Translations under genes and position numbers: made by a program
Notes under the pieces: model-generated
What the model saw: the letters and a program-made list of their open reading frames with translations, nothing else
What the model was told of the DNA's origin: nothing
The model's database searches: none
Shown: in pieces, positions 2,826 through 50,395 of the stretch
Layout of the letters: each line of letters begins with the position of its first letter
Numbering within the stretch: position 1 is the stretch's first letter
Origin: Eledone cirrhosa
Taxonomy: Eukaryota
Direction: 5' to 3'
Length of the DNA stretch: 64,000 nucleotides
Assembly (NCBI GenBank): GCA_964016885.1
Contig: OZ024743.1
Coordinates: forward strand, 39,990,001-40,054,000

Positions 2826-2986
2826 TAATTGCTTCTACTTTTGACACAAGGCCTTCGGTTATCGACCCGTTGAGGGTGAAATGCCGAGTTAATCTCAGCG
2901 GGATTTGAACTCAGCACGTAGGTAGGCATAACTCAATGCTGCAAAGTTAGTGTCTGATGCTCTACCGATACTGCCCATCCACCTTC
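2826..2986 (-). mobile_element. tRNA-derived SINE, diverged with internal deletion
   Basis: Homologous to 396-587 (GGGATTTGAACTCAG, TCTACCGATACTGCC, CACAAGGCC). Confidence 0.7.
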
Positions 2987-3132
2987 AAGGGAGGTCCGAC
3001 GAGCTTTTGATTCCAGAGTTGGGCTAGATGGATACCGATCGAACCGTGGGGTAGGCAATAGCGAAAAGCGCGTCACTACACTATAAACGCAATGATTACA
3101 TAACAAATCGTCCTTCTGATTATAATTTTCAT

Positions 3133-3197
<65 letters not shown>
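3133..3197 (+). repeat. (TAA)n microsatellite, left edge of the retrotransposon cluster
   Basis: Direct observation. Confidence 0.95.
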
Positions 3198-3198
<1 letters not shown>

Positions 3199-3360
3199 TT
3201 TGTATTATATATTTTGTATTCAAAAAAAGAAAATGGTTATAAATGGAACAAAACACCCTCTGTCTACACTATATAGAACAGCGGCAATTTCAATTTCACC
3301 AACACCAGAAACTCGATACACTACCTATCCCATCACACTAAATATAACGGCAACTTCACC
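3198..3360 (+). mobile_element. Diverged fragment of the family B 5' leader, no ORF
   Basis: AAAAAAAGAAAATGGTTATAAATGGAA...CTCTGTCTACACTATATAGAACAGC...CACCAACACCAGAAACTCGATACAC matches the reverse complement of ~21200-21390. Confidence 0.75.
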
Positions 3361-3817
3361 GGCATCATAATAATAATTACTATTATTATTGTCTCAAATT
3401 TAAAAAAATGTTTAATTCAAATTTTACGGGAATATGTCAACACAAAATATAATGAAAATATATATTAAACATAGGAACACAAACTCATAGATACTATATC
3501 AGTAACCACAACACCACCGCTGCCACCACCCCACCACATCCATCATCGCCGCCACCACTCATTCAATGCTACTGACACTATTCCCCTGTTAACTTGAGAG
3601 AGAAAAGGGAAGTTGGTGGTAGCACTAGACAAGAGAGAGGCTAGCAAAAGATATAAATAGATTGACTTGGTGACCTTGCCACGGACAAACGTCTACATCA
3701 ACAATTATGGGACTGCTGGCTCACCCCTTCCTCACCAACAATATAAAAAGCCCCGGCACCACCACCGACATAGCCAGCAGCAATAACAGCCAACTACAAC
3801 AAAAAGTATATTATATT

Positions 3818-6800
3818 ATTGTAATGCACTGGGTGATTGCTGGCCTTGTCCCTGGAGTGGAGACAATTATTAATAATTTCATTCTTAAGCCACGCAATGC
3901 TCACATTAAGGAACCACTCATGATAATAACATTTAAAAAAAACAACAAAAAGAAAACCCCGTGACCAAGAAATACCGGAATGGCGGCCGGCGGGGAATAG
4001 CCATGTCTCTAGGGGAGAACGACCCCTCTAGTCTTGGTTGACACTCGTTCTAGAAGTGGTAACACGAAAAGATTACCCCTTGGCGGATAAGGATAAAACG
4101 CGACAAAATAAAGTAGATGTCTAATGATGAAATCTCATACCGGATCGGCCGTCACCCGGGTAAAAAAGGGCCGCGTCCCTCAGAGAGGAACCAGACTGGG
4201 GTCGAAAAATCAGCTAATGGTTCAAACCTTCCCATCACTTCGGAGCTGGAGACCTCCCATAACCGGAATACTCCTACTGTTGGCCCTCCATGCTCACCAC
4301 CAAGAAATCCAAAGAAAAAGAGAGAAAAATGGTCAAGGGAAGATAATAAAGAAGTCCTTGAGGCTTTCTACACTGCCATGTACTACCCATTAAATACATC
4401 GAATACAGAGCAAACATATATCAACTGGAAAAAGAAACATCCCGAAAACAGAGGCTATATTGACAGTAACAAACTAGCCAATATACGAAGAAATATTGTA
4501 AGAAAAAAGTTACTAACTGATATAGAAATTGATCAGATCAAGCTAGTAGCACAAAGTCAGCGAAGGGAAAATGAAGCATGTGTCAGTGAAAACGAGGTAA
4601 ACTGTAACACTTCGAATCCCAGAGTTGGGGCGGAATCACTGGCAACAGAACAAATTAAAGAAAGGAGCGAAAAAGTGGAGGGAGTGCATGCTCAGGATGA
4701 AACTCCAAATGAAAATAATGAGATCGTAAATGATAAAGAAATGAATGAGAATGAACTTGCCAACTTGAAGGATGAAATTATGATCGAATGGATGAAAATG
4801 AAAGAATCTGACATGGGGGAACGAGACACCCTCCCTAAGATCCAGAACTCCAAACAGAACCAAAAGATAATACACAAGACTAACATAATTCTCAAAAACA
4901 TTATCATCACAAACAAAATAAACATTACTGACTTAAATCATCTCTATTATGCATCGGCTAAAGTCACCACTCACTTATGTGAAGTGAAGATGAAAAAACA
5001 AAGGAATTCCCACAAGAAATCTACTTGGCAAGATAACATCAATCGCCAAATAAACCTTCTCCGATCTGACATAGAAATTTTAACAAACTATAAAGTAGGT
5101 GAACATGTTAAACAAACTAAACTTAGAAAATTGAAAAAAAAGTACAGTATAAGATCAACATGTGACATAGACATGCTGATAGAAACAATCAAGCAAAAAG
5201 TGTCGGCCAAAGCTGCTCGTATAAGGCGCTTTGAAAAACGATCTAGATTCTATAAGGACAATAATATGTTCAAAAACAACCAAAGAAACTTCTACAGAAA
5301 AATTGGTAAGTCAACAATAACTGCTAAATCAATACCACCCAAGGAGGAAGTGCAAGAATTCTGGGAAAAGATCTGGGCCGAAGAAAAAGTTCATAACATA
5401 CATGCCCCATGGATAGACAGACAAATGAAAGAAACAGCTCACCTTGAAGAACAAACATGGGAAAATATAACAGTTGAACAGCTGCGCTTGGCTCTAAGAA
5501 AAACCAGCAAATGGAAATCCCCAGGAAAAGACAAAATACAAAACTTTTGGATAAATGCCTTCACAGAGTCTCATGAGCTGTTAGCCCAACTTTACAATGA
5601 AATAGTTAAGGAGCCAGAAAAGATACCATCATGGCTAGTTAACGGCATTACATTCCTGCTACCGAAGAATGATGAGACAAACAATCCCAAAAATTACAGA
5701 CCGATAACCTGCTTGACCACAATGTATAAAATTTTAACATCAGTCCTAACTGAATACACATATGACCACCTGATAACAAATGACCTATTTCCCATTGAGC
5801 AGAAAGGGTGTAAACGAGGCTCATATGGCTGTAAGGATCAGCTTCTGGTTAACAAAATGATACTGGAAGATTGTCATAATAGACACAAAAATCTATCGAT
5901 TGCTTGGATAGATTATAAAAAAGCATTTGATAGTTTGCCACACAGTTGGATTGAAAAATGTTTAGAGATTTTCAAAATATCCCCCGTTGTCAGGAGGTTT
6001 TTGTCATTCAGTATGAGGACATGGAGAACGACACTCCTTTTGAATAGTGAAACAAAATCACTGGAAGCTGGAGAAGTTAACATTAATTGTGGAATTTTTC
6101 AGGGTGACTCTTTATCACCGCTTTTATTCTGCATCGCACTTATACCATTAAGTAAAATGCTCAATGAAACAAAACATGGATATAGAGTCTATGACAAAAC
6201 CATTAATCACCTGTTCTACATGGATGACCTGAAACTATTCGCAAAAAATGATGAACAATTGCAAGGGCTATTATCCACTGTGAAGCAGTTCAGTGATGAC
6301 ATTAAAATGGAGTTTGGACTGGATAAATGCGCCAAAGCAACGTTCACCAGAGGAAAGCTGCTGAAGAGTTCAGACATTAATCTTGATCGGGGGAACGTGA
6401 TAAGAGAGCTTGATCAAGAACAAACTTACAAATATCTAGGTTTTTGTGAAGGAGACGGAATCAAGCACTCGACAATGAGGGAAAGGATAAGGAAGGAATG
6501 TTACCGCAGAGTCAGAGCAATCTTAAGAACGGAATTGAATGCAAGGAATAGGATCGATGCCATAAACACGCTTGCCATACCAGTAGTAACCTACAGTTAC
6601 AATGTCATCAACTGGTCAAGCACAGAGATCCGTAGGCTCGATACAAACATCCGAAAATTCTTAACCATGCACAGAATGCATCACCCTAAGGCAGACATAG
6701 ATAGAATATATCTCCCTAGGAAAGAAGGAGGACGTGGGTTAATCCAGTTAGACATTGCGTTGAAAACTGCAACAATTGGATTATCCACATATCTAAGGGA

Positions 6801-7907
6801 ATCACATGATTGGATGATCAAACTCGTTTTGAAACACGAAAGCACCAAAAGATCATATTCCATTACAAAAGATGCACAAAGATACAGTAATGGACTACAA
6901 ATTTCAGAAGTCCCATTTACTGCTGAAATGGAAAACACAGAAAAAGCAAAGCAGGTAAAAGTAACTGCAAAGAAAGAACTGCTACAGAAACTGGCTAAGA
7001 AATGGCAAGAAAAGCCTCTGTATGGAAAATACCCAGAGCGAGCTAACAATCCTGATGTTGACAAAACTTTAATCCATCAGTGGTTGGCATCCTCTGGACT
7101 GAAATCGGAGACTGAAGGACTGATTATATCCGCACAAGATCAGTGTCTGCCAACAAAAAATTACCAAGCCAACATAATAAAAAATGGGTGCAGCCCATTA
7201 TGCCGTGTATGCAAAAAACAACCAGAGACCATTGACCATATAATTTCAATGTGCAGTCCTATAGCTCCAACCGAATACCTAAACAGGCATGACAGAGCTG
7301 CACAATACATACATTGGATAATGTGTAAGCATTTTGACCTGCCCCATCAAAAGAATTGGTGGGAGCATCAACCACCTCCCATACTTGAAAAAGATCACAT
7401 CTCAATCTTGTGGAACTTTAGCATCCAAACAGACCGAAAGATAGATGCAAATAGACCTGATATAATATTGAAGGACTTTCAAAGCAGAGTATGCCTGCTA
7501 ATTGATATGTCTGTTCCAATAGACAAGAATGTATCTATAAAAACATTTGAAAAATTGAGCAAGTATAAGGACCTGGAGATAGAAATTGGAAAAATGTGGA
7601 AATTGAGAACTAAAACAATACCAGTGGTTGTAGGCGCTCTGGGAATGATACCTAAGGGGTCTAACGACTACTTATCGCAAATCCCAGGAAACCCGCGTAT
7701 AGGAGAAATACAAAAGATAGTACTAATGGGAACTGCCCATATACTAAGGAAGATCCTGTCAATATAAGTACATCACAAGTCTAAACACTAAGGATGCATG
7801 TGTGAATATGTGTGTTCTTTCTTGAACATGGCGGACCTTGTTGTCTCTTGAGGTCACTGGTTGTGACTTGGTGATAACTCGTATAAACATAAAGCAAGAT
7901 AAATGCA
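3818..7907 (+). mobile_element. R4/Dong-clade non-LTR retrotransposon, family A copy 1 (intact ORF)
   Basis: Single RT+RLE ORF and ~140-bp 3' UTR ending in (TAA)n at 7908-7952. Boundaries set by comparison with the inverted copy at 12841-17007. Confidence 0.92.
4117..7767 (+). CDS. Retrotransposon protein: Myb-like N-terminus, reverse transcriptase, CCHC knuckle, restriction-like endonuclease
   Basis: 1216 aa. Motifs: KSPGKD, NYRPITCL, DYKKAFDS, GIFQGDSLSPLLF, HLFYMDDLK, CRVCKKQPETIDHIISMC, RHD, RPD..D..K..KYKDL, IPVVVGALG. Confidence 0.95.
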   Translation: MSNDEISYRIGRHPGKKGPRPSERNQTGVEKSANGSNLPITSELETSHNRNTPTVGPPCSPPRNPKKKREKWSREDNKEVLEAFYTAMYYPLNTSNTEQTYINWKKKHPENRGYIDSNKLANIRRNIVRKKLLTDIEIDQIKLVAQSQRRENEACVSENEVNCNTSNPRVGAESLATEQIKERSEKVEGVHAQDETPNENNEIVNDKEMNENELANLKDEIMIEWMKMKESDMGERDTLPKIQNSKQNQKIIHKTNIILKNIIITNKINITDLNHLYYASAKVTTHLCEVKMKKQRNSHKKSTWQDNINRQINLLRSDIEILTNYKVGEHVKQTKLRKLKKKYSIRSTCDIDMLIETIKQKVSAKAARIRRFEKRSRFYKDNNMFKNNQRNFYRKIGKSTITAKSIPPKEEVQEFWEKIWAEEKVHNIHAPWIDRQMKETAHLEEQTWENITVEQLRLALRKTSKWKSPGKDKIQNFWINAFTESHELLAQLYNEIVKEPEKIPSWLVNGITFLLPKNDETNNPKNYRPITCLTTMYKILTSVLTEYTYDHLITNDLFPIEQKGCKRGSYGCKDQLLVNKMILEDCHNRHKNLSIAWIDYKKAFDSLPHSWIEKCLEIFKISPVVRRFLSFSMRTWRTTLLLNSETKSLEAGEVNINCGIFQGDSLSPLLFCIALIPLSKMLNETKHGYRVYDKTINHLFYMDDLKLFAKNDEQLQGLLSTVKQFSDDIKMEFGLDKCAKATFTRGKLLKSSDINLDRGNVIRELDQEQTYKYLGFCEGDGIKHSTMRERIRKECYRRVRAILRTELNARNRIDAINTLAIPVVTYSYNVINWSSTEIRRLDTNIRKFLTMHRMHHPKADIDRIYLPRKEGGRGLIQLDIALKTATIGLSTYLRESHDWMIKLVLKHESTKRSYSITKDAQRYSNGLQISEVPFTAEMENTEKAKQVKVTAKKELLQKLAKKWQEKPLYGKYPERANNPDVDKTLIHQWLASSGLKSETEGLIISAQDQCLPTKNYQANIIKNGCSPLCRVCKKQPETIDHIISMCSPIAPTEYLNRHDRAAQYIHWIMCKHFDLPHQKNWWEHQPPPILEKDHISILWNFSIQTDRKIDANRPDIILKDFQSRVCLLIDMSVPIDKNVSIKTFEKLSKYKDLEIEIGKMWKLRTKTIPVVVGALGMIPKGSNDYLSQIPGNPRIGEIQKIVLMGTAHILRKILSI

Positions 7908-7950
<43 letters not shown>

Positions 7951-7953
<3 letters not shown>

Positions 7954-8171
7954 TTTTCTTTATTGGCCACAAGGGCTGACATCAAGAAAAACATTACAGA
8001 CGGTACAGGATGGTACAGGACGGTACGATGCACAAAACCCATATCGTACCGTCCTGTACCGTCCTGTGCCGTCTGTAATGTTTTTCTTGATGTCAGCCCT
8101 TGTGGCCAATAAAGAAATCATTATTATTGTATTGTCCCCTATATGTCGGCCCTTGTGGCCAATAAATGAAA

Positions 8172-8174
<3 letters not shown>
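7951..8174. mobile_element. Three very short Tx1-like (or related SINE) 3'-end fragments; the first two form a palindrome
   Basis: Arms 7951-8029 (-) and 8043-8120 (+), third fragment 8128-8174 (+). All end in CCCTTGTGGCCAATAAA(T)GAAA plus a (TTA)n tail, like the 3' end at 12745-12820. Confidence 0.8.
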
Positions 8175-8206
<32 letters not shown>

Positions 8207-11200
8207 GGCGACCTACGTAGTAAATCGTATCATCGTGAGCTCCGCAAAGGTTTGTTATTTTCAGTTGTTTAAAATTGACATTTATGGAAAATGTTTATTG
8301 TTAACTGTATATAAGTGCACATACATTGATTTGTGAAAAGGACACTCAAAAAGATTGGGACCCCAACTCATGATGTCGAAATGTTTTCAACCAAAATGAA
8401 CTCTTCCACACCAAAGACGACGCCTACACCATCCACCACGTCACAACCAAAACTAACGCCTGTGGAGGATTGTCCACTCCCCGGCCTATCACAACTGAAG
8501 AGAGATTGTGACGACGAGGAGTGGGAAACGGTATCAGGAAAAAATAAAAAAAGAAACCAAAAAAGAAAAAAATTCTCTTCCTTCCCCCTCCAAAAACAAA
8601 ATACAGAGGGAAACAAATAAATTAACAAACAAAAAAGTTAGGACAGATATGCCACGATCCACACCAGCATCACCAACCCCGTCACCCCAAACACCAACAC
8701 CATCACCATCATTAACCCCAACACCATCATCACCTACACCACAAAGGTCACGAAAATGCGAAACAGAAACAACCCCACAACAAACGCAAACAAAACAAAA
8801 CAACCAAAACGATACACACTACACAGCATTAAATTTGAACAACAACCAATTATTACATTACATCCAACACTACACCAGCATCACAGAAAAAGACTACACA
8901 AATACCCAAAAGTTCACACCACCACCACACATACAAATCACTGGCATCACACAGAAAACTTACATGACACTAAAACAAAAATTCCCCAAAGACATCGGAG
9001 ACTTCCGACAAGCACTCTCCAGGAGGATTTATAAGGACATCCTTCCTGAGGAGGCCACAAGCAGTGAAAAGGATGGAAAAACCGTCCTTCCTCTACGAGA
9101 AGTAAGGTAAGTGGTCTTTCCCATCTTTTCCACTCCATTTCAACATGACTTCACTCAGTATAGGTAGCATAAATGCGCGTGGCTTGGGGTCGTCATGGAA
9201 GTAGGGCCATCTCCTCAACGACCTCAGGTCACTAAACATAGATGTAGTGGCCATCAGCGACACCAGAATCTCCGAAGCACGGGCCTTCGCACCGATCTTC
9301 GGCGGCTACGATGTGTACGCATCTCCTAGCCGTCCGGGATCGAGGGGAGGACTTGCTGTGCTTTTACGGAGAGGTTTGGATCTTGCCATACGGGCCATCT
9401 TCCTGGACCCAGAAGGTAAGTTGGTGGTGCTGGACATGACCAGCGGAGACGGACAAGCTTTAAGGTTAGTGGCCGTCTACGCCCCGACAGGAGCAGGGCG
9501 GCGGATTTCTTCCGGCGTCTGGAGACTTTTCTTGGAACGTCCCGCTCTTTAGTATTAGTGGGCCACTGGAACAGGATCTTAGATGCATGCTGGGATTGTG
9601 TGGGATTAGTGGATAGGGGAGGAGTGTGCAAGAGTCTCACCAACCTGCTCAGGCGTTTTGAACTGTCTGACAGGTACCGATTGAATTTCCCGAATGTACC
9701 AATGTGGACTTGGACAAATCGCATAGGGTCATCCAGATCATATCTAGATAGAGTATTTTGTAGGGAAATAGATAGGTCTAGCATAGGCTGTCCACAATTC
9801 AAGATAGTCAGCTACACGGACCACAAATTCGTGATCTGTGTGCTTGAATTAGATAGGTTTCATAGACGAGGACCCGGCTACTGGAAGCTAAACGCGTCCT
9901 TACCAGCGCGCAAGGCCTACAGAGACCGGATTAGCGAACTAGTTAAGCGGGCGTTGACGGGGGCCATCGTCAACAGCAAGTGGTGGTTTGCTCTGAAAAG
10001 AGCGATTAGAATAGAATCCATTAGGTTTAGTAAGGCTTTAGCAATAGAGAAAAATAGAGCAGAGGGAGAACTAGTTAGAAAATTAGACGAGGCGTTTAGC
10101 AAAGGCATTGCGAACGACGTGCTTGCGGCAAAATTGGCCCTTGACCAATTCTTCAATGCAAAGCATGAAGGCTGCGTTGTCAGGGCAAAGGTGCATGCTC
10201 TCAGACACGATAAGACGAAAGCCGATCAATAAGCCCGAGTGGCGGAGGCGGGTCGTGGCAACAAACCCACGATCCGGTCTTTGGTGGACCACGACGGGCG
10301 CATGCTACTCGATCCCGGGCAAATGTGTGAAGCTTTTCAGCGACACTTCGCTCAGCTTTTCGGGGGAAGCGGTGGGCCGGGTCGAGGGATGGACTTTAGT
10401 GTCTACCTCGACGGGCTGCCGCGACTCTCGGCCACTGAGGCAGAGTGTTGCGAAAAGCCGATAACAGCCGCTGATGTACGGGAGGCAATGACTGGCTGCA
10501 CAAGGGGTAAATCGCCTGGTTTGGATGGTCTGCCCTATGAACTTTACGTACAAATGCCAGACTTGTTCGGAGGCCTTTTGGCGGACGTCTACTGCAACTG
10601 GCAACAGAACGGCAGAATTCCCAGCTCTGTGAGCCGAGGAGCGGTGGCACTGCTGAGAAAGGATCCGAACAAGGGGGATAACATAGATAATTTCCGGCCC
10701 ATAACGCTGCTAAAGACAGAGTTCAAGATTTTGGATAAGGTGCTAGCAAAGAGGTTGGCGCTTGTCGTTGATGGTCTGGTGGGAGAGGCGCAGACGTGCG
10801 CCATTTACGACAGATCCATTCACGACAACCTCCACCTCATGCGATACATCGTAGAGAGGGTAGCTAGGGAACCTGGCACGGGTGGGTCCTTGATCAATTT
10901 AGATCAGTCGAAAGCTTTCGATAGGGTCGACCATCGTTACCTAGCGGCAGTCCTGAGGGCGGCTGGCTTTGGGCCCGTCTTCAGAGGCTGGATCGCTGCC
11001 ATGCACAGCGACATCTGCTCTGTGGTGAGAATGAACGGTCACCTTTCGGAACCGTTCAACATCATGCGCTCGGTCCGCCAAGGATGTCCCCTCTCGTCCC
11101 TCTTGTACGTATTGACTCTCGAGCCATTACTGCACAAACTGGAGACGTTGAGGGGCATCCCGCGCGAACTAGGATGCGGAAGATCCGTGTCAGCATATGC

Positions 11201-12819
11201 GGACGATGTCACCGTAGTGGTGTCGAACGCCAAACACATCGAGGCGATCGGCACTACACTAAGAGAATACGAAGCGGTGACAGGAGCAATGATCAACCAG
11301 GAAAAGTCAGTGGGCCTGCAGCTCGGCACCTGGAGAGGCAGGTCCATGCCGTCCAACAGCGTCGTCGGACGCTGGACGGACGGACCGGTTAAATTGCTAG
11401 GGGTCTGGTTCGGTCCGGACCTCCAGACGGACAAAAACTGGGACGAGGTGACGAGCAGGGTGGCTTCTCTCACCCAGAAATGGGCCGAGAGGAAGCTGTC
11501 CCTGAAAGGTCGAGCGGAGGTGGCTAATGCGTACATCGCGTCCGTCATCTACTACCGCCTGACCGTCGTACCTTGTCCTAAGCCTCGCCTGACTGCGCTG
11601 GAACGTTTGCTCTTTCGCTTTTTGTGGAAGGGACGCGCTCCGATGGTCAGGCGGTCCATCCGTTGTCAACACCCGCTACGTGGAGGGCTGGGCATGCCGT
11701 GGCTGATGATACGCAGGCACGCGCTCAGGCTACGACATCCCCACCTCTTCCTCGACGGTGATCAGGTGTGGTCACCGTTTGCTAGACACGTATTTCTCCA
11801 GCTCGTTTCCTTGAAGGAGCTGCAGTCCTGGGTCAAGCGAAGACGGAGAGGGAGCGCCTGGAGACTGGAATGTCTTCAGGCGCTCACAGCCCTCGACCAA
11901 TCGGGCAATGTGATCGGTGGAAACTCCACCTTGGCGTTCTATAGAGGATTAGTTGAGGGGAAGAGCGACGACGTACTTGGGGAAACTCTAGGCGTCGACG
12001 AAAATCAACTAGCCAATCTCTTCGGAAGAACTTTCGGGCCAGGGCCTATGGACAACTTCCAGAAATCTCTGGCCTGGCAGTGCTACCGAGGAGCCTTTCC
12101 AGTTCGGGATAAACTCTACAGGCATGGAGGTGCCGTCAGCCGGGCATGTCCAAGTTGCGCACATGGCGACGAAACCGTCCTGCACGCACTCGTCCAGTGT
12201 CCGAAAATTGCTGACTTGTGGGTTTATGTCGAACACCTGCTGTCGCGTTTAGGACGGATCCGGCTATCATCTGAGTCCATCGTGAGGATTGCCCCGCCCT
12301 CCTCCTTTAGCCGGGAACGGCAGGCAGTTTTTATCTGCCTGGTGGCCATGGCGAAAGAGATAGTATGGTGGACACGTTTGAAAGGGCCTGAAGACGAGCA
12401 CTTACCTCTTCGGTGATGCTCTGATTGACTTTTTCAAATTTCATTTGAAAAGGAAAATCAGAGTAGAGAGGGAAGTGCTCTCTTCCCAGCATTTTGTTGA
12501 AAGATGGGTGAAAGAAGCAAGAATGGCTCGAGTGAATGGGCCTATTCTGAGTATATATCTGTAAATTAAAGGTGGAAAACTGGGAGAGGGCACTTGCCTT
12601 GATGGTCAGGGTCATTGTGGCTTTTTACTGGGCTTTCTCCACAAATGTCCCTCCGAAGTCTCCCCCCTATTGCGGAATTTTTCATTGTTATTTTTTGTTA
12701 CACCCTCTGTTTTTTTTTGTTTTTTTACACGCAGAAATGCCCATTTGTACCGTCCTGTATTGTCCTGTACTGTCCTTAATGTCTACTTTATGTAAATCCT
12801 TGTGGTTAATAAAGAAAAC
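8207..12819 (+). mobile_element. L1-clade, Tx1-like non-LTR retrotransposon, near full length, disrupted
   Basis: Flanked by (TTA)n on both sides. A/C-rich 5' region with Pro/Thr-rich ORF1-like frames (8333-9110), ORF2 remnants, and a 3' UTR with AATAAA. Confidence 0.85.
9145..12564 (+). pseudogene. ORF2 (AP endonuclease + RT + C-terminal Zn finger) with stops and frameshifts
   Basis: SINARGL, VYAP, SYLDR, TDH, GPGYWKLN, KSPGLDGLPYELY, NFRPITLL, DQSKAFDRV, RQGCPLS, AYADD, CPSC..DETVLHALVQC. Split across ORFs 9247-9552, 9558-10232 and 10239-12416. Confidence 0.9.
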
Positions 12820-12840
12820 ATTATTATTATTATTATTATT

Positions 12841-17005: not shown

Positions 17006-17007
<2 letters not shown>
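12841..17007 (-). mobile_element. R4/Dong-clade family A copy 2, ORF broken by an internal inverted insertion
   Basis: Near-identical reverse complement of 3818-7907, with (TTA)n on both sides. Confidence 0.92.
12981..16706 (-). pseudogene. Family A RT-RLE ORF split in two (14934-16706 and 12981-14813)
   Basis: Both halves align to the 1216-aa protein. The break coincides with an 89-bp insertion at 14851-14939. Confidence 0.9.
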
Positions 17008-17065
<58 letters not shown>

Positions 17066-17074
17066 GTTGTTATT

Positions 17075-21504: not shown

Positions 21505-21535
<31 letters not shown>

Positions 21536-21608
21536 CTTGAATCTCAGTCATTAATGTTAGTTAACTGGAAAGTCCGTTGGAATGAATATCAAGCCACTAC
21601 CTGCAGCC

Positions 21609-24600
21609 TCAGATATTCAGGACGTATCGGAGGGTTCTTGCTGTTCCCAGCAAGCATGCCTTTTGAAGCGTTCCAAAAAGCGTGAAGGGGCCGATTTTCT
21701 TTAACCATCCCTGGAAACTTTTGGAGATAGTCCTCAGTGCGCCTATGACAATCGGGATCACTTTGACTTCATGGCAGTTCCAAATCCTTTTTACCTCCCA
21801 CTTTAAGTCCTGGTATCGGTAAATTTTCTCCCTCTCCTTCTCTTGCACTCTCGTGTCGAATGGGCAGGCCACATCCACAATCAGACTCGATCTTTTTTCT
21901 TTGTCCACAACCACCAGGTCAGGTCTATTGTGTTCCAGTTTCTTGTCCGTCTGTATCCTAAAATCCCACAGCACCTTCACATGATCGTTCTCCCTCACCG
22001 CCTCTGGCTTATGCTCATACCGTTTCTCAGAATGTGGTAAATTGTTTGCTTTGCACAGGTGCCAGTGGATCACCCTGCCCATCACATCATGTCTCCAGCC
22101 CTTATAGTGGGTCTGGGCTAGGCGTTTACACTCGGATACAATGTGAGCCACAGTCTCCTCTTTCTCTCCACAGATCCTGCACAGTGGGCTAGCCTCCTCC
22201 TTGTAGATATGGTGCTTCAACCACTTCGTTTTGAGGGCCTGCTCCTGCGCAGCCATTAACATTCCTTCTGTAGCCTTTTTTAGGTCTCCTCTTCTCAACC
22301 AGTTCCATGTCTGTGGATCTCTAAATTCAGTTTTCTCAAAGAAGGTACTATGAAGGGATTTTCCCTTAAGGCTGCTCTTCCTCCTTGATGTTATTTCCTC
22401 CTTGGACATCCCCTGGCCTATTGTCCCCTCCTTCAGTACAGTTCTGAGCATTGGCTCCTTACTATCAGTCACGTATTTGTGTAGGTTGTTTTTCTCCATC
22501 TGAACACAGTCCTCTATGCTGATAAGACCTCTTCCACCCTCAGATCTCCTTAGGTAGAGTCTATCGACATCACTCCTCTTGTGGAACATATTGTAGATAG
22601 TCAATAGCTTCCTAGTCTTCCTATCCATTTCTTTTTGTTCAGCAACATTCCATCTCAGAATTCCCGCACTGTACCTAATAATAGACACAGCTCGGGAATT
22701 TACTGCGCTTATGGCATTTCTGCTGTTCAGATGTGACTTCAATACGCTCCTTACTCTCCGAATGTATTCAATTCTTAACAATTCCTTCATTTTTTTGTTC
22801 TTTATGCCATCAGCCTCCAGAACGCCCAAATAATTGTATCCTTCCTCAGAGTCAATTTCCTTTATCATCTCACCTGTTGGTATCTGGATTCCGTTACTTC
22901 TGCTCAACCTACCCCTCCTCATCACAATGACTCCACACTTGCTAATACCAAACTGCATACATATATCACTGCTGAAAATACAGAGAGTGTCAACAAGCAC
23001 ATCCAACTCCTTCTCACTCTTCCCGAAGAGCTTAAGATCGTCCATGAAGATGAGGTGATTGATGGAAAGCTCTCCCCTTCCCAACGTGTATCCTGCTCTC
23101 ACTTTTCGCAGCATAATGGTCAAGGGCATCGGGGCAAGGACAAACAACAGAGGGGACAGGCTATCTCCCTGGAAGATACCTCTCTTGATCTTCACGCTTC
23201 CCAAGGATACTCCAGTTGATGTCAACTCTGTCTCCCAGGACCCCATACTCCTGCCCAGCAACTGTCTGATGTTATCTGCCACCCTGAAGATCTCCAGGCT
23301 TTTGGTGATCCAGGAATGAGGCACCATGTCAAATGCCTTTCTGTAGTCTATCCATCCCATGGCAAGATCAGTGTGTCTCCTCCTGCAATTCCCCATTACC
23401 ATCTTATCAATAAGCAACTGGTCCTTTGTACCACGTGACTTCTTTCGGCATCCTTTCTGTTCGTCCGGCAACAAGTTGTTTGTGTGGAGGTGATGGTAGA
23501 TTTCCTCAGACACAATGCTCGTCAACAGTTTCCACATTACGGGCAGACATGTGATAGGTCTATAGTTGGTAACATCATTACCCTTGATTCGGTCTTTCAT
23601 TATCAGAACTGTGGTACCTTTTTTCAACCACTCTGGCACCTCACCCGACACCAAGCAGTCATTGAACATGGCCGTCAGCTTCGGGTGGAGGGATGTTAAA
23701 TGTTTAATCCAATACCCCTGCACACCATCTGGGCCTGGTGATTTCCAGTTGGTTAGTTTTTTGGCTTGCCCCTTAAGAGTTTCAACTGTGATACTCAAAT
23801 CAGTCTGTTGCTGTGCCTGCTCACCGATCTCCCTCTGTACTGTCTCAATCCACCCTGCCTGGGCATTGTGTCTAACATCCTGCTCCCATATTCCTCTCCA
23901 GAATGTTTTAGCTTGTTCCGCCCCAGGGATCAAGTCGTTGCCTCTTTCTTTCCCCTCAAGCTGTCCAAACAGCATCTTCTGGTTGTTGTCGAACATGCGG
24001 TTCTGTTTATACTGACTGACTCTGTTCTCGTATCGCCTGATTTTGGCACTCTTTGCTACAATGCGTTGCTTCAATTCCTCTATGATAATATTTAGCTTTT
24101 TACTCCTAGTTTTGTATTTTATTTCCAGTCTATTTTTAGTGCCTATGTTTTTTAGTGTCCCATTCAGTAGTGACTCAAGCTTTCCTATGTCATTTCTCAT
24201 TTCCCCGATTTGCCCACTCAGTCGCTTCTTCCACCACGGCTCTGCTCTTTCTTGTCTGTTGTTTCCTCTCGCTTTTATACCAAGTAGTTTCCTCACCGTA
24301 TTTGCTGTTGCTTTGAGGATATTGTTGCACTGGTGAAGACTCCTCGCCTCAAGGTATGGGATGACTTTGTTTACCTTAGCTGTTGTTTCTTTTAACTTTT
24401 TCCTGTCTACAAATCTTAGGTTCATAGGTCTCCCACTATCATTGTTCAACTCATCTACCACTAAATTTAGGATGTCAACCGAATCTTGTCCTAGCCCGTC
24501 AGCATTCATCTCCTCAGTGGCCGTTTCTCTGTTCCAGGTATTATTTATCTCAGTATTCAGATCATTGTCTGCTTCGGGTGGTTTCTCCGTTCTCAGGACC

Positions 24601-25001
24601 TCCTCACCTTCATTTCCCGCCGGCTCGCTTGTCTGGCATACTACACCCGCCATCTCCAAGCCATTCTCTCTGCTCAGTTCCTCCAGTTCCAGCTCGCTTA
24701 TCCACCCATTAGTTCTTATTACCCGAGCCTGCCCGGCCAATTTTTGTTCATCTAATTTAAATAAACTAATCTCGTTCCAGATGTTATGCATCCGTCTCCT
24801 GTAGCCCCTCTCCTTGGGGTTACTTTTCAGGTAGCATTGCATAACAGTTCTATTCAATTCTTTCGTCCAGTTGGTTCTGGCCCCTTTCCTTCTTCTTCTT
24901 CCTCCAACATCAGCAGTATTTGGTTGACAGTCAGGTTCCTGCTGCTGAGCCAGGGGGCACCTGTTGGGTGAGAGTCTGTCACATGACGTTCTAGTCTCCA
25001 T
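21609..25001 (-). CDS. Retrotransposon protein (RT + CCHC + restriction-like endonuclease)
   Basis: 1130 aa. KSPGPDG, NYRPITCL, DYRKAFD, GIFQGDSLSPLLF, FMDDLK, CRICGEKEETVAHIVSEC, RHD, RPD. Confidence 0.95.
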   Translation of the reverse strand: METRTSCDRLSPNRCPLAQQQEPDCQPNTADVGGRRRRKGARTNWTKELNRTVMQCYLKSNPKERGYRRRMHNIWNEISLFKLDEQKLAGQARVIRTNGWISELELEELSRENGLEMAGVVCQTSEPAGNEGEEVLRTEKPPEADNDLNTEINNTWNRETATEEMNADGLGQDSVDILNLVVDELNNDSGRPMNLRFVDRKKLKETTAKVNKVIPYLEARSLHQCNNILKATANTVRKLLGIKARGNNRQERAEPWWKKRLSGQIGEMRNDIGKLESLLNGTLKNIGTKNRLEIKYKTRSKKLNIIIEELKQRIVAKSAKIRRYENRVSQYKQNRMFDNNQKMLFGQLEGKERGNDLIPGAEQAKTFWRGIWEQDVRHNAQAGWIETVQREIGEQAQQQTDLSITVETLKGQAKKLTNWKSPGPDGVQGYWIKHLTSLHPKLTAMFNDCLVSGEVPEWLKKGTTVLIMKDRIKGNDVTNYRPITCLPVMWKLLTSIVSEEIYHHLHTNNLLPDEQKGCRKKSRGTKDQLLIDKMVMGNCRRRHTDLAMGWIDYRKAFDMVPHSWITKSLEIFRVADNIRQLLGRSMGSWETELTSTGVSLGSVKIKRGIFQGDSLSPLLFVLAPMPLTIMLRKVRAGYTLGRGELSINHLIFMDDLKLFGKSEKELDVLVDTLCIFSSDICMQFGISKCGVIVMRRGRLSRSNGIQIPTGEMIKEIDSEEGYNYLGVLEADGIKNKKMKELLRIEYIRRVRSVLKSHLNSRNAISAVNSRAVSIIRYSAGILRWNVAEQKEMDRKTRKLLTIYNMFHKRSDVDRLYLRRSEGGRGLISIEDCVQMEKNNLHKYVTDSKEPMLRTVLKEGTIGQGMSKEEITSRRKSSLKGKSLHSTFFEKTEFRDPQTWNWLRRGDLKKATEGMLMAAQEQALKTKWLKHHIYKEEASPLCRICGEKEETVAHIVSECKRLAQTHYKGWRHDVMGRVIHWHLCKANNLPHSEKRYEHKPEAVRENDHVKVLWDFRIQTDKKLEHNRPDLVVVDKEKRSSLIVDVACPFDTRVQEKEREKIYRYQDLKWEVKRIWNCHEVKVIPIVIGALRTISKSFQGWLKKIGPFTLFGTLQKACLLGTARTLRYVLNI

Positions 25002-25571
25002 TTCACCGTTATTCGAACTGTTTATGTTCGATATTTAAACACTCTTATCGAGGATTGGCGAATGTATGTTTACATAGCCATCTGTGGATCCGCCATCCCA
25101 CTTGGCCCTTGTGTGGCATTATCACCACGCTGTATACGGACACACATAAACAAACAAACACACGAGGAGAAAGGGCCCCAAAAATGAATAAGCATAAGTT
25201 TCATTGTAATGTAGTATTCGAATGTCTGACTTAGTTTTTGTTTTTTAAGTTTTACTTTTCCCCCCCCTCTTCTCTGTCCGTCCGCCTGCTTCTCTCTTCA
25301 TTCTTATTTTCTTAACGTTTTTGGGGTTTCTTTTTTTGTTTTTGTTTTTCTCTGTTTTTCTCGTTTTTTACTGTTGTTGCTGTGCTGCTTTTGTTGTTTG
25401 TTTTTTCTTTTTTCTTTTGAGTCTATCTATATATTTTGATGCCTTCCTCTTTGTTAGTAGTAGGAATTCTATAATGTGGAAGTGGTAGCCAGCAGAGACT
25501 GGTGGCGTTGGCGATACTGAGACAGTGGTGGTGGTGATGTCGATACCGAGGCAGTGGTGGCGGTGATGCGA

Positions 25572-26217
25572 CCGTATTACTGTAGTGATGGTGCTGTAGC
25601 GGTGGCAGCAGCAGTGAAGGAGTCAGGGGGTGGTGGCGGCGGTGATGGGATAGTGGTGGTAATGATGGCCGTAGTGAGCGGTGGCGGTGAAGGTGAAAAT
25701 GCTGTTGTGTTTAGTGTACACAGATGATGGGGTGGGTGGTGTATCTAGTTTCTGGTGTTCGTGAGTTTCGCTGTCCTATATAGTGTAGCCAGAGGAGAGG
25801 AGGGGGGGGGGTTCTTCTTCTTCCATTTATAGCCATTTTATTTTTTTTTTGGATATACAGTGTACAATACAAAGTTGAATATTTGAATATTTGAGCCGTA
25901 TTACTGTAGTGATGGTGCTGTAGCGGTGGCAGCAGCAGTGAAGGAGTCAAGGGATGGTGGCGGCGGTGATGGGATAGTGGTGGTAATGATGGCCGTAGTG
26001 AGCGGTGGCGGTGAAGGTGAAAATGCTGTTGTGTTCAGTGTACACAGATGATGGGGTGGGTGGTGTATCTAGTTTCTGGTGTTGGTGAGTTTAGCTGTCC
26101 TATATAGTGTAGCCAGAGGAGAGGAGGGGGGGGGGCGTTCTTCTTCTTCCATTTATAGCCATTTTTTTTTGGATATACAGTGTACAATACAAAGTTGAAT
26201 ATTTGAATATTTGAGCC
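25572..26217. repeat. ~324-bp tandem duplication in the leader of family B copy 2
   Basis: Units start CCGTATTACTGTAGTGATGG at 25572 and 25896. Confidence 0.9.
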
Positions 26218-26394
26218 TTATAACAATATATTTTGGGTCCGAATTTTTTTGGGGCTCAAGCCGGGTGCTTTACGTAGCATTTGTACTAAGAGTTGTTATT
26301 TCACAAATGATTTAAATATGTTAAAAATATGTTAAAAATTCAAAACTTACGGGAGCGATTTCATGACCTCCGTCACCTCGTGCGTCTTGTTCCC

Positions 26395-26432
<38 letters not shown>

Positions 26433-26515
26433 GCTATTACTCTTTGAGTCTCAGTCATTGATGTTAGTTAACTGGAAAGTTTGTTGAAATGAATATCAAG
26501 CCACTACCTGCAGCC

Positions 26516-29500
26516 TCAGATATTCAGGACGTATCGGAGGGTTCTTGCTGTTCCCAGCAAGCATGCCTTTTGAAGCGTTCCAAAAAGCGTGAAGGGGCCA
26601 ATTTTCTTTAACCATCCCTGGAAACTTTTTGAGATAGTCCCTAGTGCGCCTATGACAATCGGGATCACTTTGACTTCATGGCAGTTCCAAATCCTTTTCA
26701 CCTCCCACTTTAGGTCCTGGTATCGGTTAATTTTCTCCCTCTCCTTCTCTTGCACTCTCGTGTCGAACGGGCAGGCCACTTCCACAATCAGGCACGATCT
26801 TTTTTCTTTGTCTACAACCACCAGGTCAGGTCTATTGTGTTCCAGTTTTTTGTCCGTCTGTATCCTAAAATCCCACAGCACCTTCACCTGACTGTTCTCC
26901 ATCACCGCCTCTGGCCTATGCTCATACCATTTCTCAGAATGTGGTAGATTGTTTACTTTGCACAGGTACCAGTGGATCGCCCTGCCCATCACATCGTGTC
27001 TCCAGCCCTTATAGTGGGTCTGGGCTAGGTGTTTACACTCGGACACAATGTGAGCCACAGTCTCCTCTCTCTCTCCACAGATCCTGCACAGTGGGCTAGC
27101 CTCCTCCTTGTAGATATGGTGCTTCAACCACTTCGTTTTGAGGGCCTGCTCCTGCGCAGCCATTAACATTCCTTCTGTAGCCTTTTTTAGGTCTCCTCTT
27201 CTCAACCAGTTCCATGTCTGTGGATCTCTAAATTCAGTTTTCTCAAAGAAGGTACTATGAAGGGATTTTCCCTTAAGGCTGCTCTTCCTCCTTGATGTTA
27301 TTTCCTCCTTGGGTATCCCCTGGCCTACTGTCCCCTCCTTCAGTACAGCTCTGAGCATTGGCTCCTTACTATAGGTCACGTATTTGTATAGGTTGTTTTT
27401 CTCCATCTGAACACAGTCCTCTATGCTGATAAGACCTCTTCCACCCTCAGATCTCCTTAGGTAGAGTCTATCGACATCACTCCTCTTGTGGAACATGTTG
27501 TAGATAGTCAATAGCTTCCTAGTCTTCCTATCCATTTCTTTTTGTTCAGCAACATTCCATCTCAGAATTCCCGCACTGTACCTAATAATAGACACAGCTC
27601 GGGAATTTACTGCGCTTATGGCATTTCTGCTGTTCAGATGTGACTTCAATACGCTCCTTACTCTCCGAATGTATTCAGTTCTTAACAATTCCTTCATTTT
27701 TTTGTTCTTTATGCCATCAGCCTCCAGAACGCCCAAATACTTGTATCCTTCCTCAGAGTCAATTTCCTTTATCATCTCACCTGTTGGTATCTGGATCCCG
27801 TTACTTCTGCTCAACCTACCCCTCCTCATCACAATGACTCCACATTTACCAATACCAAACTGCATACACATATCACTGCTGAAAATACGGACAGTGTCAA
27901 CAAGCACATCCAACTCCTTCTCACTTTTCCCGAAGAGCTTAAGATCGTCCATGAAGAGGAGGTGATTGATGGTAAGCTCTCCCCTTCCCAACTTGTATCC
28001 TGCTCTCACTTTTCGCAGCATAATGGTCAAGGGCATCAGGGCAAGGACAAACAACAGAGGGGACAGGCTATCTCCCTGGAAGATACCTCTCTTGATCTTC
28101 ACGCTTCCCAAGGATACTCCAGTTGATGTCAACTCTGTCTCCCAGGACACCATACTCCTGCCCAGCAACTGTCTGATGTTATCTGCCACCCTGAAGATCT
28201 CCAGGCTTTTGGTGATCCAGGAATGAGGCACCATGTCAAATGCCTTTCTGTAGTCTATCCATCCCATGGCAAGATCAGTGTGTCTCCTCCTGCAATTCCC
28301 CATTACCATCTTATCAATAAGCAACTGGTCCTTTGTACCACGTGACTTCTTTCGGCATCCTTTCTGTTCGTCCGGCAACAAGTTGTTTGTGTGGAGGTGA
28401 TGGTAGATTTCCTCAGACACAATGCTCGTCAACAGTTTCCACATTACGGACAGACATGTGATAGGTCTATAGTTGGTAACATCATTACCCTTGATTCGGT
28501 ATTTCATTGTCAGAACTGTGGTACCTTTTGTCAACCACTCTGGCACCTCACCCGACACCAAGCAGTCATTGAACATGGCCGTCAGCTTCGGGTGGAGGGA
28601 TGTTAAATGTTTAATCCAATACCCCTGCACACCATCTGGGCCTGGTGATTTCCAGTTGGTTAGTTTTTTGGCTTGCCCCTTAAGAGTTTCAACTGTGATA
28701 CTCAAATCAGTCTGTTGCTGTGCCTGCTCACCGATCTCCCTCTGTACTGTCTCAATCCACCCTGCCTGGGCATTGTGTCTAACATCCTGCTCCCATATTC
28801 CTCTCCAGAATGTTTTAGCTTGTTCCGCCCCAGGGATCAAGTCGTTGCCTCTTTCTTTCCCCTCAAGCTGTCCAAACAGCATCTTCTGGTTGTTGTCGAA
28901 CATGCGGTTCTGTTTATACTGACTGACTCTGTTCTCGTATCGCCTGATTTTGGCACTCTTTGCTACAATGCGTTGCTTCAATTCCTCTATGATAATATTT
29001 AGCTTTTTACTCCTAGTTTTGTATTTTATTTCCAGTCTATTTTTAGTGCCTATGTTTTTTAGTGTCCCATTCAGTAGTGACTCAAGCTTTCCTATGTCAT
29101 TTCTCATTTCCCCGATTTGCCCACTCAGTCGCTTCTTCCACCACGGCTCTGCTCTTTCTTGCCTGTTGTTTCCTCTCGCTTTTATACCAAGTAGTTTCCT
29201 CACCGTATTTGCTGTTGCTTTGAGGATATTGTTGCACTGGTGAAGACTCCTCGCCTCAAGGTATGGGATGACTTTGTTTACCTTAGCTGTTGTTTCTTTT
29301 AACTTTTTCCTGTCTACAAATCTTAGGTTCATAGGTCTCCCACTATCATTGTTCAACTCATCTACCACTAAATTTAGGATGTCAACCGAATCTTGTCCTA
29401 GCCCGTCAGCATTCATCTCCTCAGTGGCCGTATCTCTGTTCCAGGTATTATTTATCTCAGTATTCAGATCATTGTCTGCTTCGCGTGGTTCCTCCGTTCT

Positions 29501-29908
29501 CAGGACCTCCTCACCTTCATTTCCCGCCGGCTCGCTTGTCAGGCATACTACACCCGCCATCTCCAAGCCATTCTCTCTGCTCAGTTCCTCCAGTTCCAGC
29601 TCGCTTATCCACCCATTAGTTCTTATTACCCGAGCCTGCCCGGCCAATTTTTGTTCATCTAATTTAAATAAACCAATCTCGTTCCAGATGTTATGCATCC
29701 GTCTCCTGTAGCCCCTCTCCTTGGGGTTACTTTTCAGGTAGCATTGCATAACAGTTCTATTCAATTCTTTCGTCCAGTTGGTTCTGGCCCCTTTCCTTCT
29801 TCTTCTTCCTCCAACATCAGCAGTATTTGGTTGACAGTCAGGTTCCTGCTGCTGAGCCAGGGGGCACCTGTTGGGTGAGAGTCTGTCACATGACGTTCTA
29901 GTCTCCAT
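26516..29908 (-). CDS. Retrotransposon protein (RT + CCHC + restriction-like endonuclease)
   Basis: 1130-aa intact ORF. HLLFMDDLK, CRICGEREETVAHIVSEC, RHD, RPD, IPIVIGALG. Confidence 0.95.
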   Translation of the reverse strand: METRTSCDRLSPNRCPLAQQQEPDCQPNTADVGGRRRRKGARTNWTKELNRTVMQCYLKSNPKERGYRRRMHNIWNEIGLFKLDEQKLAGQARVIRTNGWISELELEELSRENGLEMAGVVCLTSEPAGNEGEEVLRTEEPREADNDLNTEINNTWNRDTATEEMNADGLGQDSVDILNLVVDELNNDSGRPMNLRFVDRKKLKETTAKVNKVIPYLEARSLHQCNNILKATANTVRKLLGIKARGNNRQERAEPWWKKRLSGQIGEMRNDIGKLESLLNGTLKNIGTKNRLEIKYKTRSKKLNIIIEELKQRIVAKSAKIRRYENRVSQYKQNRMFDNNQKMLFGQLEGKERGNDLIPGAEQAKTFWRGIWEQDVRHNAQAGWIETVQREIGEQAQQQTDLSITVETLKGQAKKLTNWKSPGPDGVQGYWIKHLTSLHPKLTAMFNDCLVSGEVPEWLTKGTTVLTMKYRIKGNDVTNYRPITCLSVMWKLLTSIVSEEIYHHLHTNNLLPDEQKGCRKKSRGTKDQLLIDKMVMGNCRRRHTDLAMGWIDYRKAFDMVPHSWITKSLEIFRVADNIRQLLGRSMVSWETELTSTGVSLGSVKIKRGIFQGDSLSPLLFVLALMPLTIMLRKVRAGYKLGRGELTINHLLFMDDLKLFGKSEKELDVLVDTVRIFSSDMCMQFGIGKCGVIVMRRGRLSRSNGIQIPTGEMIKEIDSEEGYKYLGVLEADGIKNKKMKELLRTEYIRRVRSVLKSHLNSRNAISAVNSRAVSIIRYSAGILRWNVAEQKEMDRKTRKLLTIYNMFHKRSDVDRLYLRRSEGGRGLISIEDCVQMEKNNLYKYVTYSKEPMLRAVLKEGTVGQGIPKEEITSRRKSSLKGKSLHSTFFEKTEFRDPQTWNWLRRGDLKKATEGMLMAAQEQALKTKWLKHHIYKEEASPLCRICGEREETVAHIVSECKHLAQTHYKGWRHDVMGRAIHWYLCKVNNLPHSEKWYEHRPEAVMENSQVKVLWDFRIQTDKKLEHNRPDLVVVDKEKRSCLIVEVACPFDTRVQEKEREKINRYQDLKWEVKRIWNCHEVKVIPIVIGALGTISKSFQGWLKKIGPFTLFGTLQKACLLGTARTLRYVLNI

Positions 29909-30477
29909 TTCACCGTTATTCGAACTGTTTATGTTCGATATTTAAACACTCTTATCGAGGATTGGCGAATGTATGTTTACATAGCCATCTGTGGATCCGC
30001 CATCCCACTTGGCCCTTGTGTGGCATTATCACCACGCTGTATACGGACACACATAAACAAACAAACACACGGGCAGAAAGGGCCCCAAAAATGAATAAGC
30101 ATAAGTTTCATTGTAATGTAGTATTCGAATGTCTGACTTAGTTTTTGTTTTTTAAGTTTTACTTTTTCCCCCCTCTTCTCTGTCCGTCCGCCTGCTTCTC
30201 TCTTCATTCTTATTTTCTTAACGTTTTTGGGGTTTCTTTTTTTGTTTTTGTTTGTCTCTGTTTTTCTCGTTTTTTACTGTTGTTGCTGTGCTGCTTTTGT
30301 TGTTTGTTTTTTCTTTTTTCTTTTGAGTCTATCTATATATTTTGATGCCTTCCTCTTTGTTAGTAGTAGGAATTCTATAATGTGGAAGTGGTAGCCAGCA
30401 GAGACTGGCGGCGTTGGCGATACTGAGACAGTGGTGGTGGTGATGTCGATACCGAGGCAGTGGTGGCGGTGATGCGA

Positions 30478-31128
30478 CCGTATTACTGTAGTGATGGTGC
30501 TGTAGCGGTGGCAGCAGCAGTGAAGGAGTCAGGGGGTGGTGGCGGCGGTGATGGGATAGTGGTGGTAATGATGGCCGTAGTGAGCGGTGGCGGTGAAGGT
30601 GAAAATGCTGTTGTGTTTAGTGTACACAGATGATGGGGTGGGTGGTGTATCTAGTTTCTGGTGTTCGTGAGTTTCGCTGTCCTATATAGTGTAGCCAGAG
30701 GAGAGGAGGGGGGGGGGTGTTCCTTCTTCTTCCATTTATAGCCATTTTATTATTTTTTTTTTGGATATACAGTGTACAATACAAAGTTGAATATTTGAAT
30801 ATTTGAGCCGTATTACTGTAGTAATGGTGCTGTAGCGGTGGCAGCAGCAGTGAAGGAGTCAAGGGGTGGTGGCGGCGGTGATGGGATAGTGGTGGTAATG
30901 ATGGCCGTAGTGAGCGGTGGCGGTGAAGGTGAAAATGCTGTTGTGTTTAGTGTACACAGATGATGGGGTGGGTGGTGTATCTAGTTTCTGGTGTTGGTGA
31001 GTTTAGCTGTCCTATATAGTGTAGCCAGAGGAGAGGAGGGGGGGGGGTTCTTCTTCTTCCATTTATAGCCATTTTTTTTTTGGTTATACAGTGTACAATA
31101 CAAAGTTGAATATTTGAATATTTGAGCC
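30478..31128. repeat. ~330-bp tandem duplication in the leader of family B copy 3
   Basis: Units start at 30478 and 30808, with the same breakpoint as copy 2. Confidence 0.9.
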
Positions 31129-31294
31129 TTATAACAATATATTTTGGGTCCGAATTTTTTTGGGGCTCCAGCCGGGTGCTTTACGTAGCATTTGTACTAA
31201 GAGTTGTTATTTCACAAATGATTTAAATATGTTAAAAATTCAAAACTTACGGGAGCGATTTCATGACCTCCGTCACCTCGTGCGTCTTCTTCCC

Positions 31295-31337
<43 letters not shown>

Positions 31338-50195: not shown

Positions 50196-50395
<200 letters not shown>

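Follow-up and report, generated by a model that had tools for sequence, protein, structure and literature searches.

We analyzed a 64,000-nucleotide stretch of the Eledone cirrhosa genome (GenBank assembly GCA_964016885.1, contig OZ024743.1, positions 39,990,001 to 40,054,000 of the forward strand; hereafter the window, numbered from its first letter). Positions 3134-31336 of the window hold nine pieces of long interspersed nuclear elements (LINEs) placed end to end: five Dong-like copies, one Tx1-like copy and three Tx1-like 3' fragments. In our reading, Dong-like and Tx1-like retrotransposons linked by TAA repeats form a stack with two arms here. Many such stacks occur in this genome, and this one was probably built by separate insertions and probably grew outward from a central hairpin.

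Layout of the array

A first-pass annotation of this DNA had listed the same nine pieces, and all of them were recovered with coordinates. The left outer end is a (TAA)21 run (3134-3198, plus strand), likely the growth point of the left arm. It is followed by A1 (3199-7907, plus), a copy of Dong-like family A without ~185 nt of its 5' end but with an intact open reading frame (ORF), which is the youngest copy here. An (AAT)15 run (7908-7952, plus) is common to A1 and, tail to tail with it, a Tx1-like 3' fragment of subfamily T3 (7953-8029, minus), the left arm of the hairpin. The right arm is another T3 3' fragment (8030-8119, plus), which ends in (ATT)3 at 8128, and repeat polarity switches at its 5' junction. 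A 45-bp Tx1-like 3' fragment of a further subfamily, T2 (8129-8173, plus), and an (ATT)11 run (8174-8206, plus) lead to the Tx1-like LINE itself (copy T; 8207-12819, plus), with both termini intact and the oldest long copy here. An (ATT)7 run (12820-12840, plus) is then common, tail to tail, to T and to A2, a 5'-truncated copy of family A (12841-17007, minus).

The remaining features lie on the minus strand. An interrupted (TAA)n junction holds the tail of B1 (17008-17076; a TTA run on the plus strand), a frameshifted copy of Dong-like family B (17077-21504). A (TAA)10 junction (21505-21536; read as (ATT)10) separates B1 from B2, a full-length family B copy (21537-26394) with an intact ORF at 21609-25034, and a (TAA)12 junction (26395-26442; (TTA)12) separates B2 from B3, also of family B and full length (26443-31294), with an intact ORF at 26516-29941. 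A (TAA)14 run (31295-31336; (TTA)14) forms the right outer end, likely the growth point of the right arm.

No element of the array lies inside the ORF of another, as had been annotated. The pieces were also said to abut through short TAA or TTA runs, and this is so at nearly all joins, the exception being the central Tx1-like pair, which is joined without a repeat. The array had further been placed in one (TAA)n microsatellite; however, the plus-strand repeat is TAA to the left of ~8030 and TTA to the right of it, and thus there are two arms of opposite polarity. More than three lineages are present, against the three LINE families first counted, since the 3' fragments match two Tx1 subfamilies (T3 and T2) other than that of the long copy T.

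Copies become younger outward

We counted the changes private to each long copy. On the right arm, from the centre outward, there were 67 in 3757 positions for T (1.78%), 35 in 4081 for A2 (0.86%), 40 in 4344 for B1 (0.92%), 20 in 4111 for B2 (0.49%) and 15 in 4398 for B3 (0.34%), an outward trend with a rho of -0.9 (p=0.04 on 5 points). The left arm has A1, with 7 in 4709 (0.15%). Both outer ends of the array are the 5' flanks of the youngest copies.

Repeat lengths elsewhere in the genome were asymmetric as well. Among 37 adjacent Dong pairs (3 from the window), median junction length was 6.5 units where the upstream copy was the younger (22 pairs) and 17 where the downstream copy was (15 pairs; p=1e-4). 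The 39 youngest Dong copies had a median run of 15 units on their 5' side versus 7 on their 3' side (p=0.0075), and in a sample of long TAA runs (see below) a LINE lay only downstream in 16 cases and only upstream in 4 (p=0.012, unweighted). These observations support a model in which a new Dong copy leaves the long run on its 5' side, and the window copies get younger outward. Each insertion likely leaves a long fresh repeat on one side, so that the array likely grew outward from the hairpin.

Several points weigh against this reading. A2 and B1 break the age order (0.86 vs 0.92%), and sparser sampling may have raised the Tx1 divergence. Flank asymmetry was confined to the 39 youngest Dong copies and was absent from the full set of 59 (28 vs 28, p=0.47), and after weighting the one-sided ratio in the long-run sample was about 2:1, not 4:1. 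The Dong pairs, moreover, were centred on young A copies. Because they are not independent and the samples are small, the one-sided data support the growth model without proving it.

Neighbouring copies are all truncated at different points, which argues for separate insertions. Chains could also be laid down in one event, through template jumping of the reverse transcriptase (RT) between RNAs, co-mobilised read-through transcripts or tandem duplication; of the Dong neighbours downstream of young A copies, about half are themselves young, B2 and B3 are 98% identical, and some pairs are near-ties in age. Nevertheless, besides the differing truncation points, Tx1 neighbours lie on the opposite strand, the tails of B copies differ in sequence, and private divergence among the window copies spans a tenfold range, so that a single-event origin appears decidedly improbable.

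The central hairpin

At the centre of the array the two T3 3' fragments are joined head to head, without repeat, into a 78-bp hairpin, with 4 of 78 positions differing between its arms. Both arms together occurred in none of the other 39 scored places, which indicates a local event. The differences between the arms point either to two separate templates or to an old mirror whose halves diverged later. The hairpin may have originated from two insertions at one break, or from deletion of the middle of a larger palindrome; that this origin is guessed from a single case counts against the growth model.

An inverted join or repeat collapse during assembly might instead have produced the array, or its polarity switch, as an artefact. 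The switch sits between two inverted copies, A1 and A2, that are 98-99% identical, and the contigs of 4 sequencing runs over 2850-8500 did not span this stretch, with the hairpin junction absent from the alignment rows listed, which is evidence neither way on assembly or expression. Yet each copy is a distinct sequence and has private changes, the two arms of the hairpin are not identical, their junction is unique among the 40 scored places, and another switch is present in a different region (R19). We therefore consider an artefact extremely improbable. The switch in R19 (L187+L188, 10370-11112) lies next to a T3 3' fragment that directly abuts an inverted A piece, and a further switch, in locus L008, coincides with a natural TAA/TTA palindrome. 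Within the window, a compound (TGC)n(CTA)n(TAA)12(ATT)52 run at 50195-50463, with an inverted TAA/TTA join, matches no A, B or T copy; long inverted sites can thus stay empty.

One target, two strands

We searched the 3.0-Gb genome for further copies. A query with the 3' end of A1 returned 1223 candidates, of which the 40 that were scored were all 100% identical and on chromosome C1; other queries returned at least 1493 (A 5' end), at least 841 (T 3' end) and at least 221 (B 3' end). Strand polarity was scored in 135 search loci, which partly overlap and include five of the window's own, and which together gave 197 repeat sites. Dong ends were on the TAA strand in 177 of 179 cases and Tx1 ends on the TTA strand in 95 of 95, as were 33 of 35 ends of short interspersed nuclear elements (SINEs). 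Unselected DNA (600 kb, evenly spaced) had the same polarity in 6/6 Tx1, 3/3 Dong and 13/13 SINE ends. Dong-like elements thus occupy the TAA strand and Tx1-like elements the TTA strand of one shared target, as the first-pass annotation had it from the window.

Clustering probably follows long repeat runs

The locus had also been described as a landing pad. In 20-kb regions around the first 20 other young A matches, however, 18 of 20 held chains of at least two LINE pieces, 9 of 20 had a chain running off an end, and the A copy was solitary in 2. Such chains are ordinary in this genome, and the array in the window, though longer than usual, belongs to a common class; only its central mirror sets the locus itself apart.

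Clustering was compared with two kinds of TAA site. A LINE lay across the 3' tail in 20/29 A copies (one edge case dropped; 22/30 by eye), 13/24 B copies, 11/29 Tx1 copies of the T type and 10/18 T3 copies. At ordinary sites of at least 4 units, a LINE occupied the matching side in 4/38 or 5/38 cases, and the focal rates exceeded these with p values of 1e-6 to 0.02 (A versus 4/38, Fisher p=1e-6). The clustering is therefore not accounted for by plain regeneration of an average site. Perfect runs of at least 10 units number 32,154 in the genome (8039 + 16318 + 7797). Of 60 sampled, 34 touched a LINE (63% phase-weighted); with respect to the TAA strand, a LINE was downstream in 30 and upstream in 18. 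Against this baseline the focal rates were not significantly higher (A, p=0.11; B, p=0.81; T, p=0.48). The proposed clustering thus held relative to ordinary sites but not relative to long perfect runs, and since the focal rates are close to the long-run baseline, a preference for long runs likely explains most of it. Judging from these comparisons, long perfect runs are likely preferred targets, with the elements themselves supplying most of them. Three points tell against this interpretation: the long runs were sampled on a single chromosome (C1), within its first 25 Mb; those that adjoin elements could have arisen solely through insertion, without being preferred as targets; and the by-eye A rate is slightly above the long-run rate (p=0.04), so that some extra preference may remain.

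That residue would fit an active partnership, in which the insertion machinery is drawn to element ends or array chromatin beyond any effect of repeat length. Such a partnership would also accommodate the Dong neighbours found downstream of young A copies (14/29, versus 1/38 at ordinary sites) and the 72% identity of the A and B 5' ends over ~350 nt despite proteins only 35% identical. B, Tx1 and script-scored A rates show no difference from the long-run baseline, however, and solo copies exist, which makes a partnership rather unlikely; attraction to long runs is the reading we retain. As a separate observation, a repeated non-LINE sequence with an A-run and an internal (TAA)10 occurs at loci L270, L272, L275, L277, L278, L284 and L302. 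At L275 and L302 a B copy lies in this (TAA)10, and the repeat family may therefore spread seed sites.

The possibility that the array is a master locus had been raised too. With 7 to 67 private changes, no window copy looks like the source of the sampled copies, and the 20 other regions hold 5 intact full Dong ORFs (4 of A and 1 of B). A functional role as such a source, or as a trap locus of the PIWI-interacting RNA type with both strands represented, could draw on the three intact ORFs and on the 4.2-kb inverted repeats formed by A1 and A2, which could give double-stranded RNA if read through. In addition to the private changes, both intact ORFs and similar chains are common elsewhere in the genome, and no host gene domain was found in the 54 scanned of 81 flanking ORFs of at least 75 amino acids (one match to a domain of unknown function was below threshold). 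We consider a functional locus very improbable; no host function is needed for the array.

A model of array growth

The data are compatible with the following sequence of events. Restriction-like and apurinic/apyrimidinic (AP)-type nucleases would nick opposite strands of the repeat for target-primed reverse transcription, with long perfect TAA runs as the preferred targets. At each insertion the run would be renewed by tail addition, target duplication or slippage, and the long fresh repeat left on one side would make the array grow outward. The seed was likely an inverted TAA/TTA site, created by the head-to-head join of two Tx1 3' ends, which would have provided two outward-facing growth ends. 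The notion of a self-extending array shared by elements of the restriction-like endonuclease (RLE) and AP types, advanced in the first-pass annotation, fits the polarity counts, the differing truncations and the tenfold range of private divergence.

More tentatively, and with somewhat less than even confidence, we propose that this amounts to a genome-wide ratchet: two unrelated retrotransposon classes would make most long TAA runs, with the long run always on the same side, producing directional arrays, and an inverted seed would produce a two-ended array with long inverted repeats, a ready source of double-stranded RNA and rearrangement. If so, the order of an array is a dated record of insertions, and transposable element hotspots and long trinucleotide microsatellites would make each other without selection. 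With thousands of natural junctions, two nuclease classes and one target, strand and site choice become testable from sequence alone, and enzymes can be cleanly compared in the pair made up of an (ATT)n-specific AP-type element and a (TAA)n-specific RLE element.

Relation to known systems

The ingredients of this model are known from Dong, Kibi and Koshi, and SART and TRAS; the present analysis measured the baseline for run length, the one-sidedness of the run and the order of ages outward from a central mirror. SART and TRAS both belong to the AP type, within the R1 clade. They enter the (TTAGG)n telomeric repeats of Bombyx in opposite orientations, and their endonuclease sets strand and site (PMC7265360). 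As here, two families use one simple repeat in opposite orientations. SART and TRAS are mostly telomeric, whereas the E. cirrhosa elements are of two unrelated nuclease classes, and the microsatellites that they use are dispersed and number in the tens of thousands. Utopia and Keno, an RLE-type and an AP-type element that converge on genes for U2 small nuclear RNA, with tandem insertions reported (PMC4640811), likewise share one target; theirs is a fixed site in a gene, where the 3' flank is the same, while here the target is a renewable repeat entered from opposite strands. Tandem transposable elements formed by multiple insertion include R1 arrays (McGurk and Barbash, PMC5932611) and tandem SINEU-3 (PMC4494074). 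The chains described here resemble these in their head-to-tail copies, distinct 5' truncations, intervening target sequence and sequential insertion. In contrast to those tandems, which are mostly same-family dimers, they mix families, strands and a SINE, and touch most long target runs.

Among cephalopods, Octopus vulgaris has active Dong-R4 and Tx1 families, with 1129 recent Dong-R4 and 421 recent L1-Tx1 insertions (PMC13282606); the words "target" and "nested" are absent from the main text of that annotation. We found no account of mixed Dong/Tx1 (TAA)n arrays in the literature covered, although Repbase, subscription journals, Kojima and Fujiwara 2004 and supplements, all outside the search, may hold such families.

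The Dong-like families

The three intact ORFs first reported are those of A1 (4117-7767, 1216 amino acids), B2 and B3 (1141 amino acids each, stop to stop). A1 has the RT motif YMDD, a CX2CX8HX4C zinc knuckle, an RHD motif and a PD..D..K..KY nuclease motif. The knuckle is also present in B2 and B3; the pattern PD..D..K..[KR]Y matched A1 and B2 and is visible in the B3 translation, though the pattern missed it. In Pfam the Dong-like copies matched RVT_1 without Exo_endo_phos, and an alignment of A1 to solved R2 proteins covers RT to nuclease (E 6e-26). With one ORF, a central RT, a C-terminal CCHC knuckle and restriction-like endonuclease, and no AP endonuclease, A and B have the layout of R4/Dong elements. 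A homologue search gave 13 matches, 12 unnamed and one "hypothetical", with no named Dong or R4 reference among them. Near the N-terminus of A and B there is a W-x-x-E-x-N motif, with no Pfam Myb match. The N-terminus of R4/Dong proteins is described as a diverged SANT/Myb-like domain without N-terminal zinc fingers (PMC7998251).

Dong elements insert in (TAA)n, a target reported in most insects, molluscs and cnidarians (PMC7998251, PMC3812793). Dong of Bombyx mori, DongAg, DongBg and Darwinula Dong1/2 (PMC3812793, PMC7998251, PMC3774820) have, like A and B, a single ORF, an RT, a zinc knuckle, a restriction-like nuclease and (TAA)n. The E. cirrhosa elements differ in comprising two families with a shared 5' end, and passages of the same three papers describe neither mixed chains of tens of kb nor one-sided growth.

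The 5' untranslated regions (UTRs) of both families, at 1.1-1.4 kb, are a further difference. Window positions 3199-3817 belong to A's own 5' UTR and are contiguous with A in loci L001, L013, L016 and L022. The A 5' UTR also holds a fixed SINE-like piece (window 3818-3890), and in several copies (L010, L038, L041, L044) a further SINE is inserted in it. A ~330-bp tandem duplication in the 5' UTR of B2 (25572-26224) and B3 (30478-31135) is absent from B1 and thus marks B subfamilies. The ORF of A2 is broken by an inverted, identical 78-bp copy (14855-14932, plus) of a stretch of A2 that lies ~900 nt further 3'. The copy has short matching ends (14846-14932) and could reflect a template switch onto new complementary DNA, or a templated repair patch.

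No hepatitis delta virus (HDV)-like ribozyme was found at Dong or Tx1 5' ends in an Rfam search of 4 loci, and a strict HDV-like descriptor, run without a positive control, gave 0 matches in four 5' ends. To our knowledge, a 5' HDV-like ribozyme is not established as universal in Dong elements. Bombyx Dong carries a self-cleaving one at its 5' end (PMC3774820), whereas none was detected in the four loci scanned here. Of 21 full-length Dong 5' junctions, 10 are immediately preceded by (GAA)n or by partial repeats of the first bases of the element (e.g., L052, L057, L205, L032, L047), which suggests that slippage at these joins gives rise to GAA repeats.

A GCTC..G(C/T)AAG(G/T)T-like motif, ~40-50 nt in, is common to the 5' ends of A, B and two Tx1 subfamilies (window 31245-31294, minus, and 8207-8260, plus; L036) and may be a shared promoter or a splice-donor-like signal. 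A derivation of the Dong 5' UTR from a Tx1 5' region found no convincing BLAST match and is kept as a lead only. In comparisons of 200-nt 5' ends, B against T4 beat 500 of 500 crude shuffles, while the other 3 of 4 comparisons did not.

Family A sequence also appeared, over 2850-8500, in sequencing runs of other organisms: abundant and 90-99% identical in X4, at low depth and ~98% identical in X10, which may reflect relatives, contamination or transfer.

The Tx1-like families

Copy T carries stops, frameshifts and 5' deletions; it is ~1.2 kb shorter than genomic copies of 5.8-5.9 kb, with the loss in the 5' region and ORF1. Its AP-endonuclease part is broken, and its RT part lies at 10233-12416. 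The domains detected were Exo_endo_phos (weak in this broken copy, E 0.003), RVT_1 and zf-RVT, and the two-ORF layout and AP motifs are present in other genomic Tx1-like copies. The layout is that of Tx1: ORF1, and ORF2 with an AP endonuclease, an RT and a C-terminal zinc motif. An RT search with T gave 77 matches, most of them unnamed, which included Xenopus YTX2 (Tx1 ORF2; 33% identity, E 5e-69) and a Tetraodon pol-like protein.

Full Tx1 5' ends had at least 4 TTA units directly upstream in 32 of 32 cases, and 3' ends had at least 4 in 52 of 64, so that specificity looks looser for some copies. Overall, the Tx1-like elements here are microsatellite-specific, with both ends in a fixed simple repeat. 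Known Tx1 families target (TC)n (Kibi), (TTC)n (Koshi) and crocodilian (TTCC)n/(TTTC)n (PMC4494074). The E. cirrhosa elements resemble Kibi and Koshi in having two ORFs, an AP endonuclease with an RT, and a microsatellite target. They differ from them in their target, (ATT)n, which the passages of PMC4494074 do not give for Tx1 and which an RLE-type element also uses, on the other strand. One Tx1 copy (L084) ends in a (TTC)n run instead of (TTA)n, a target of the Koshi type.

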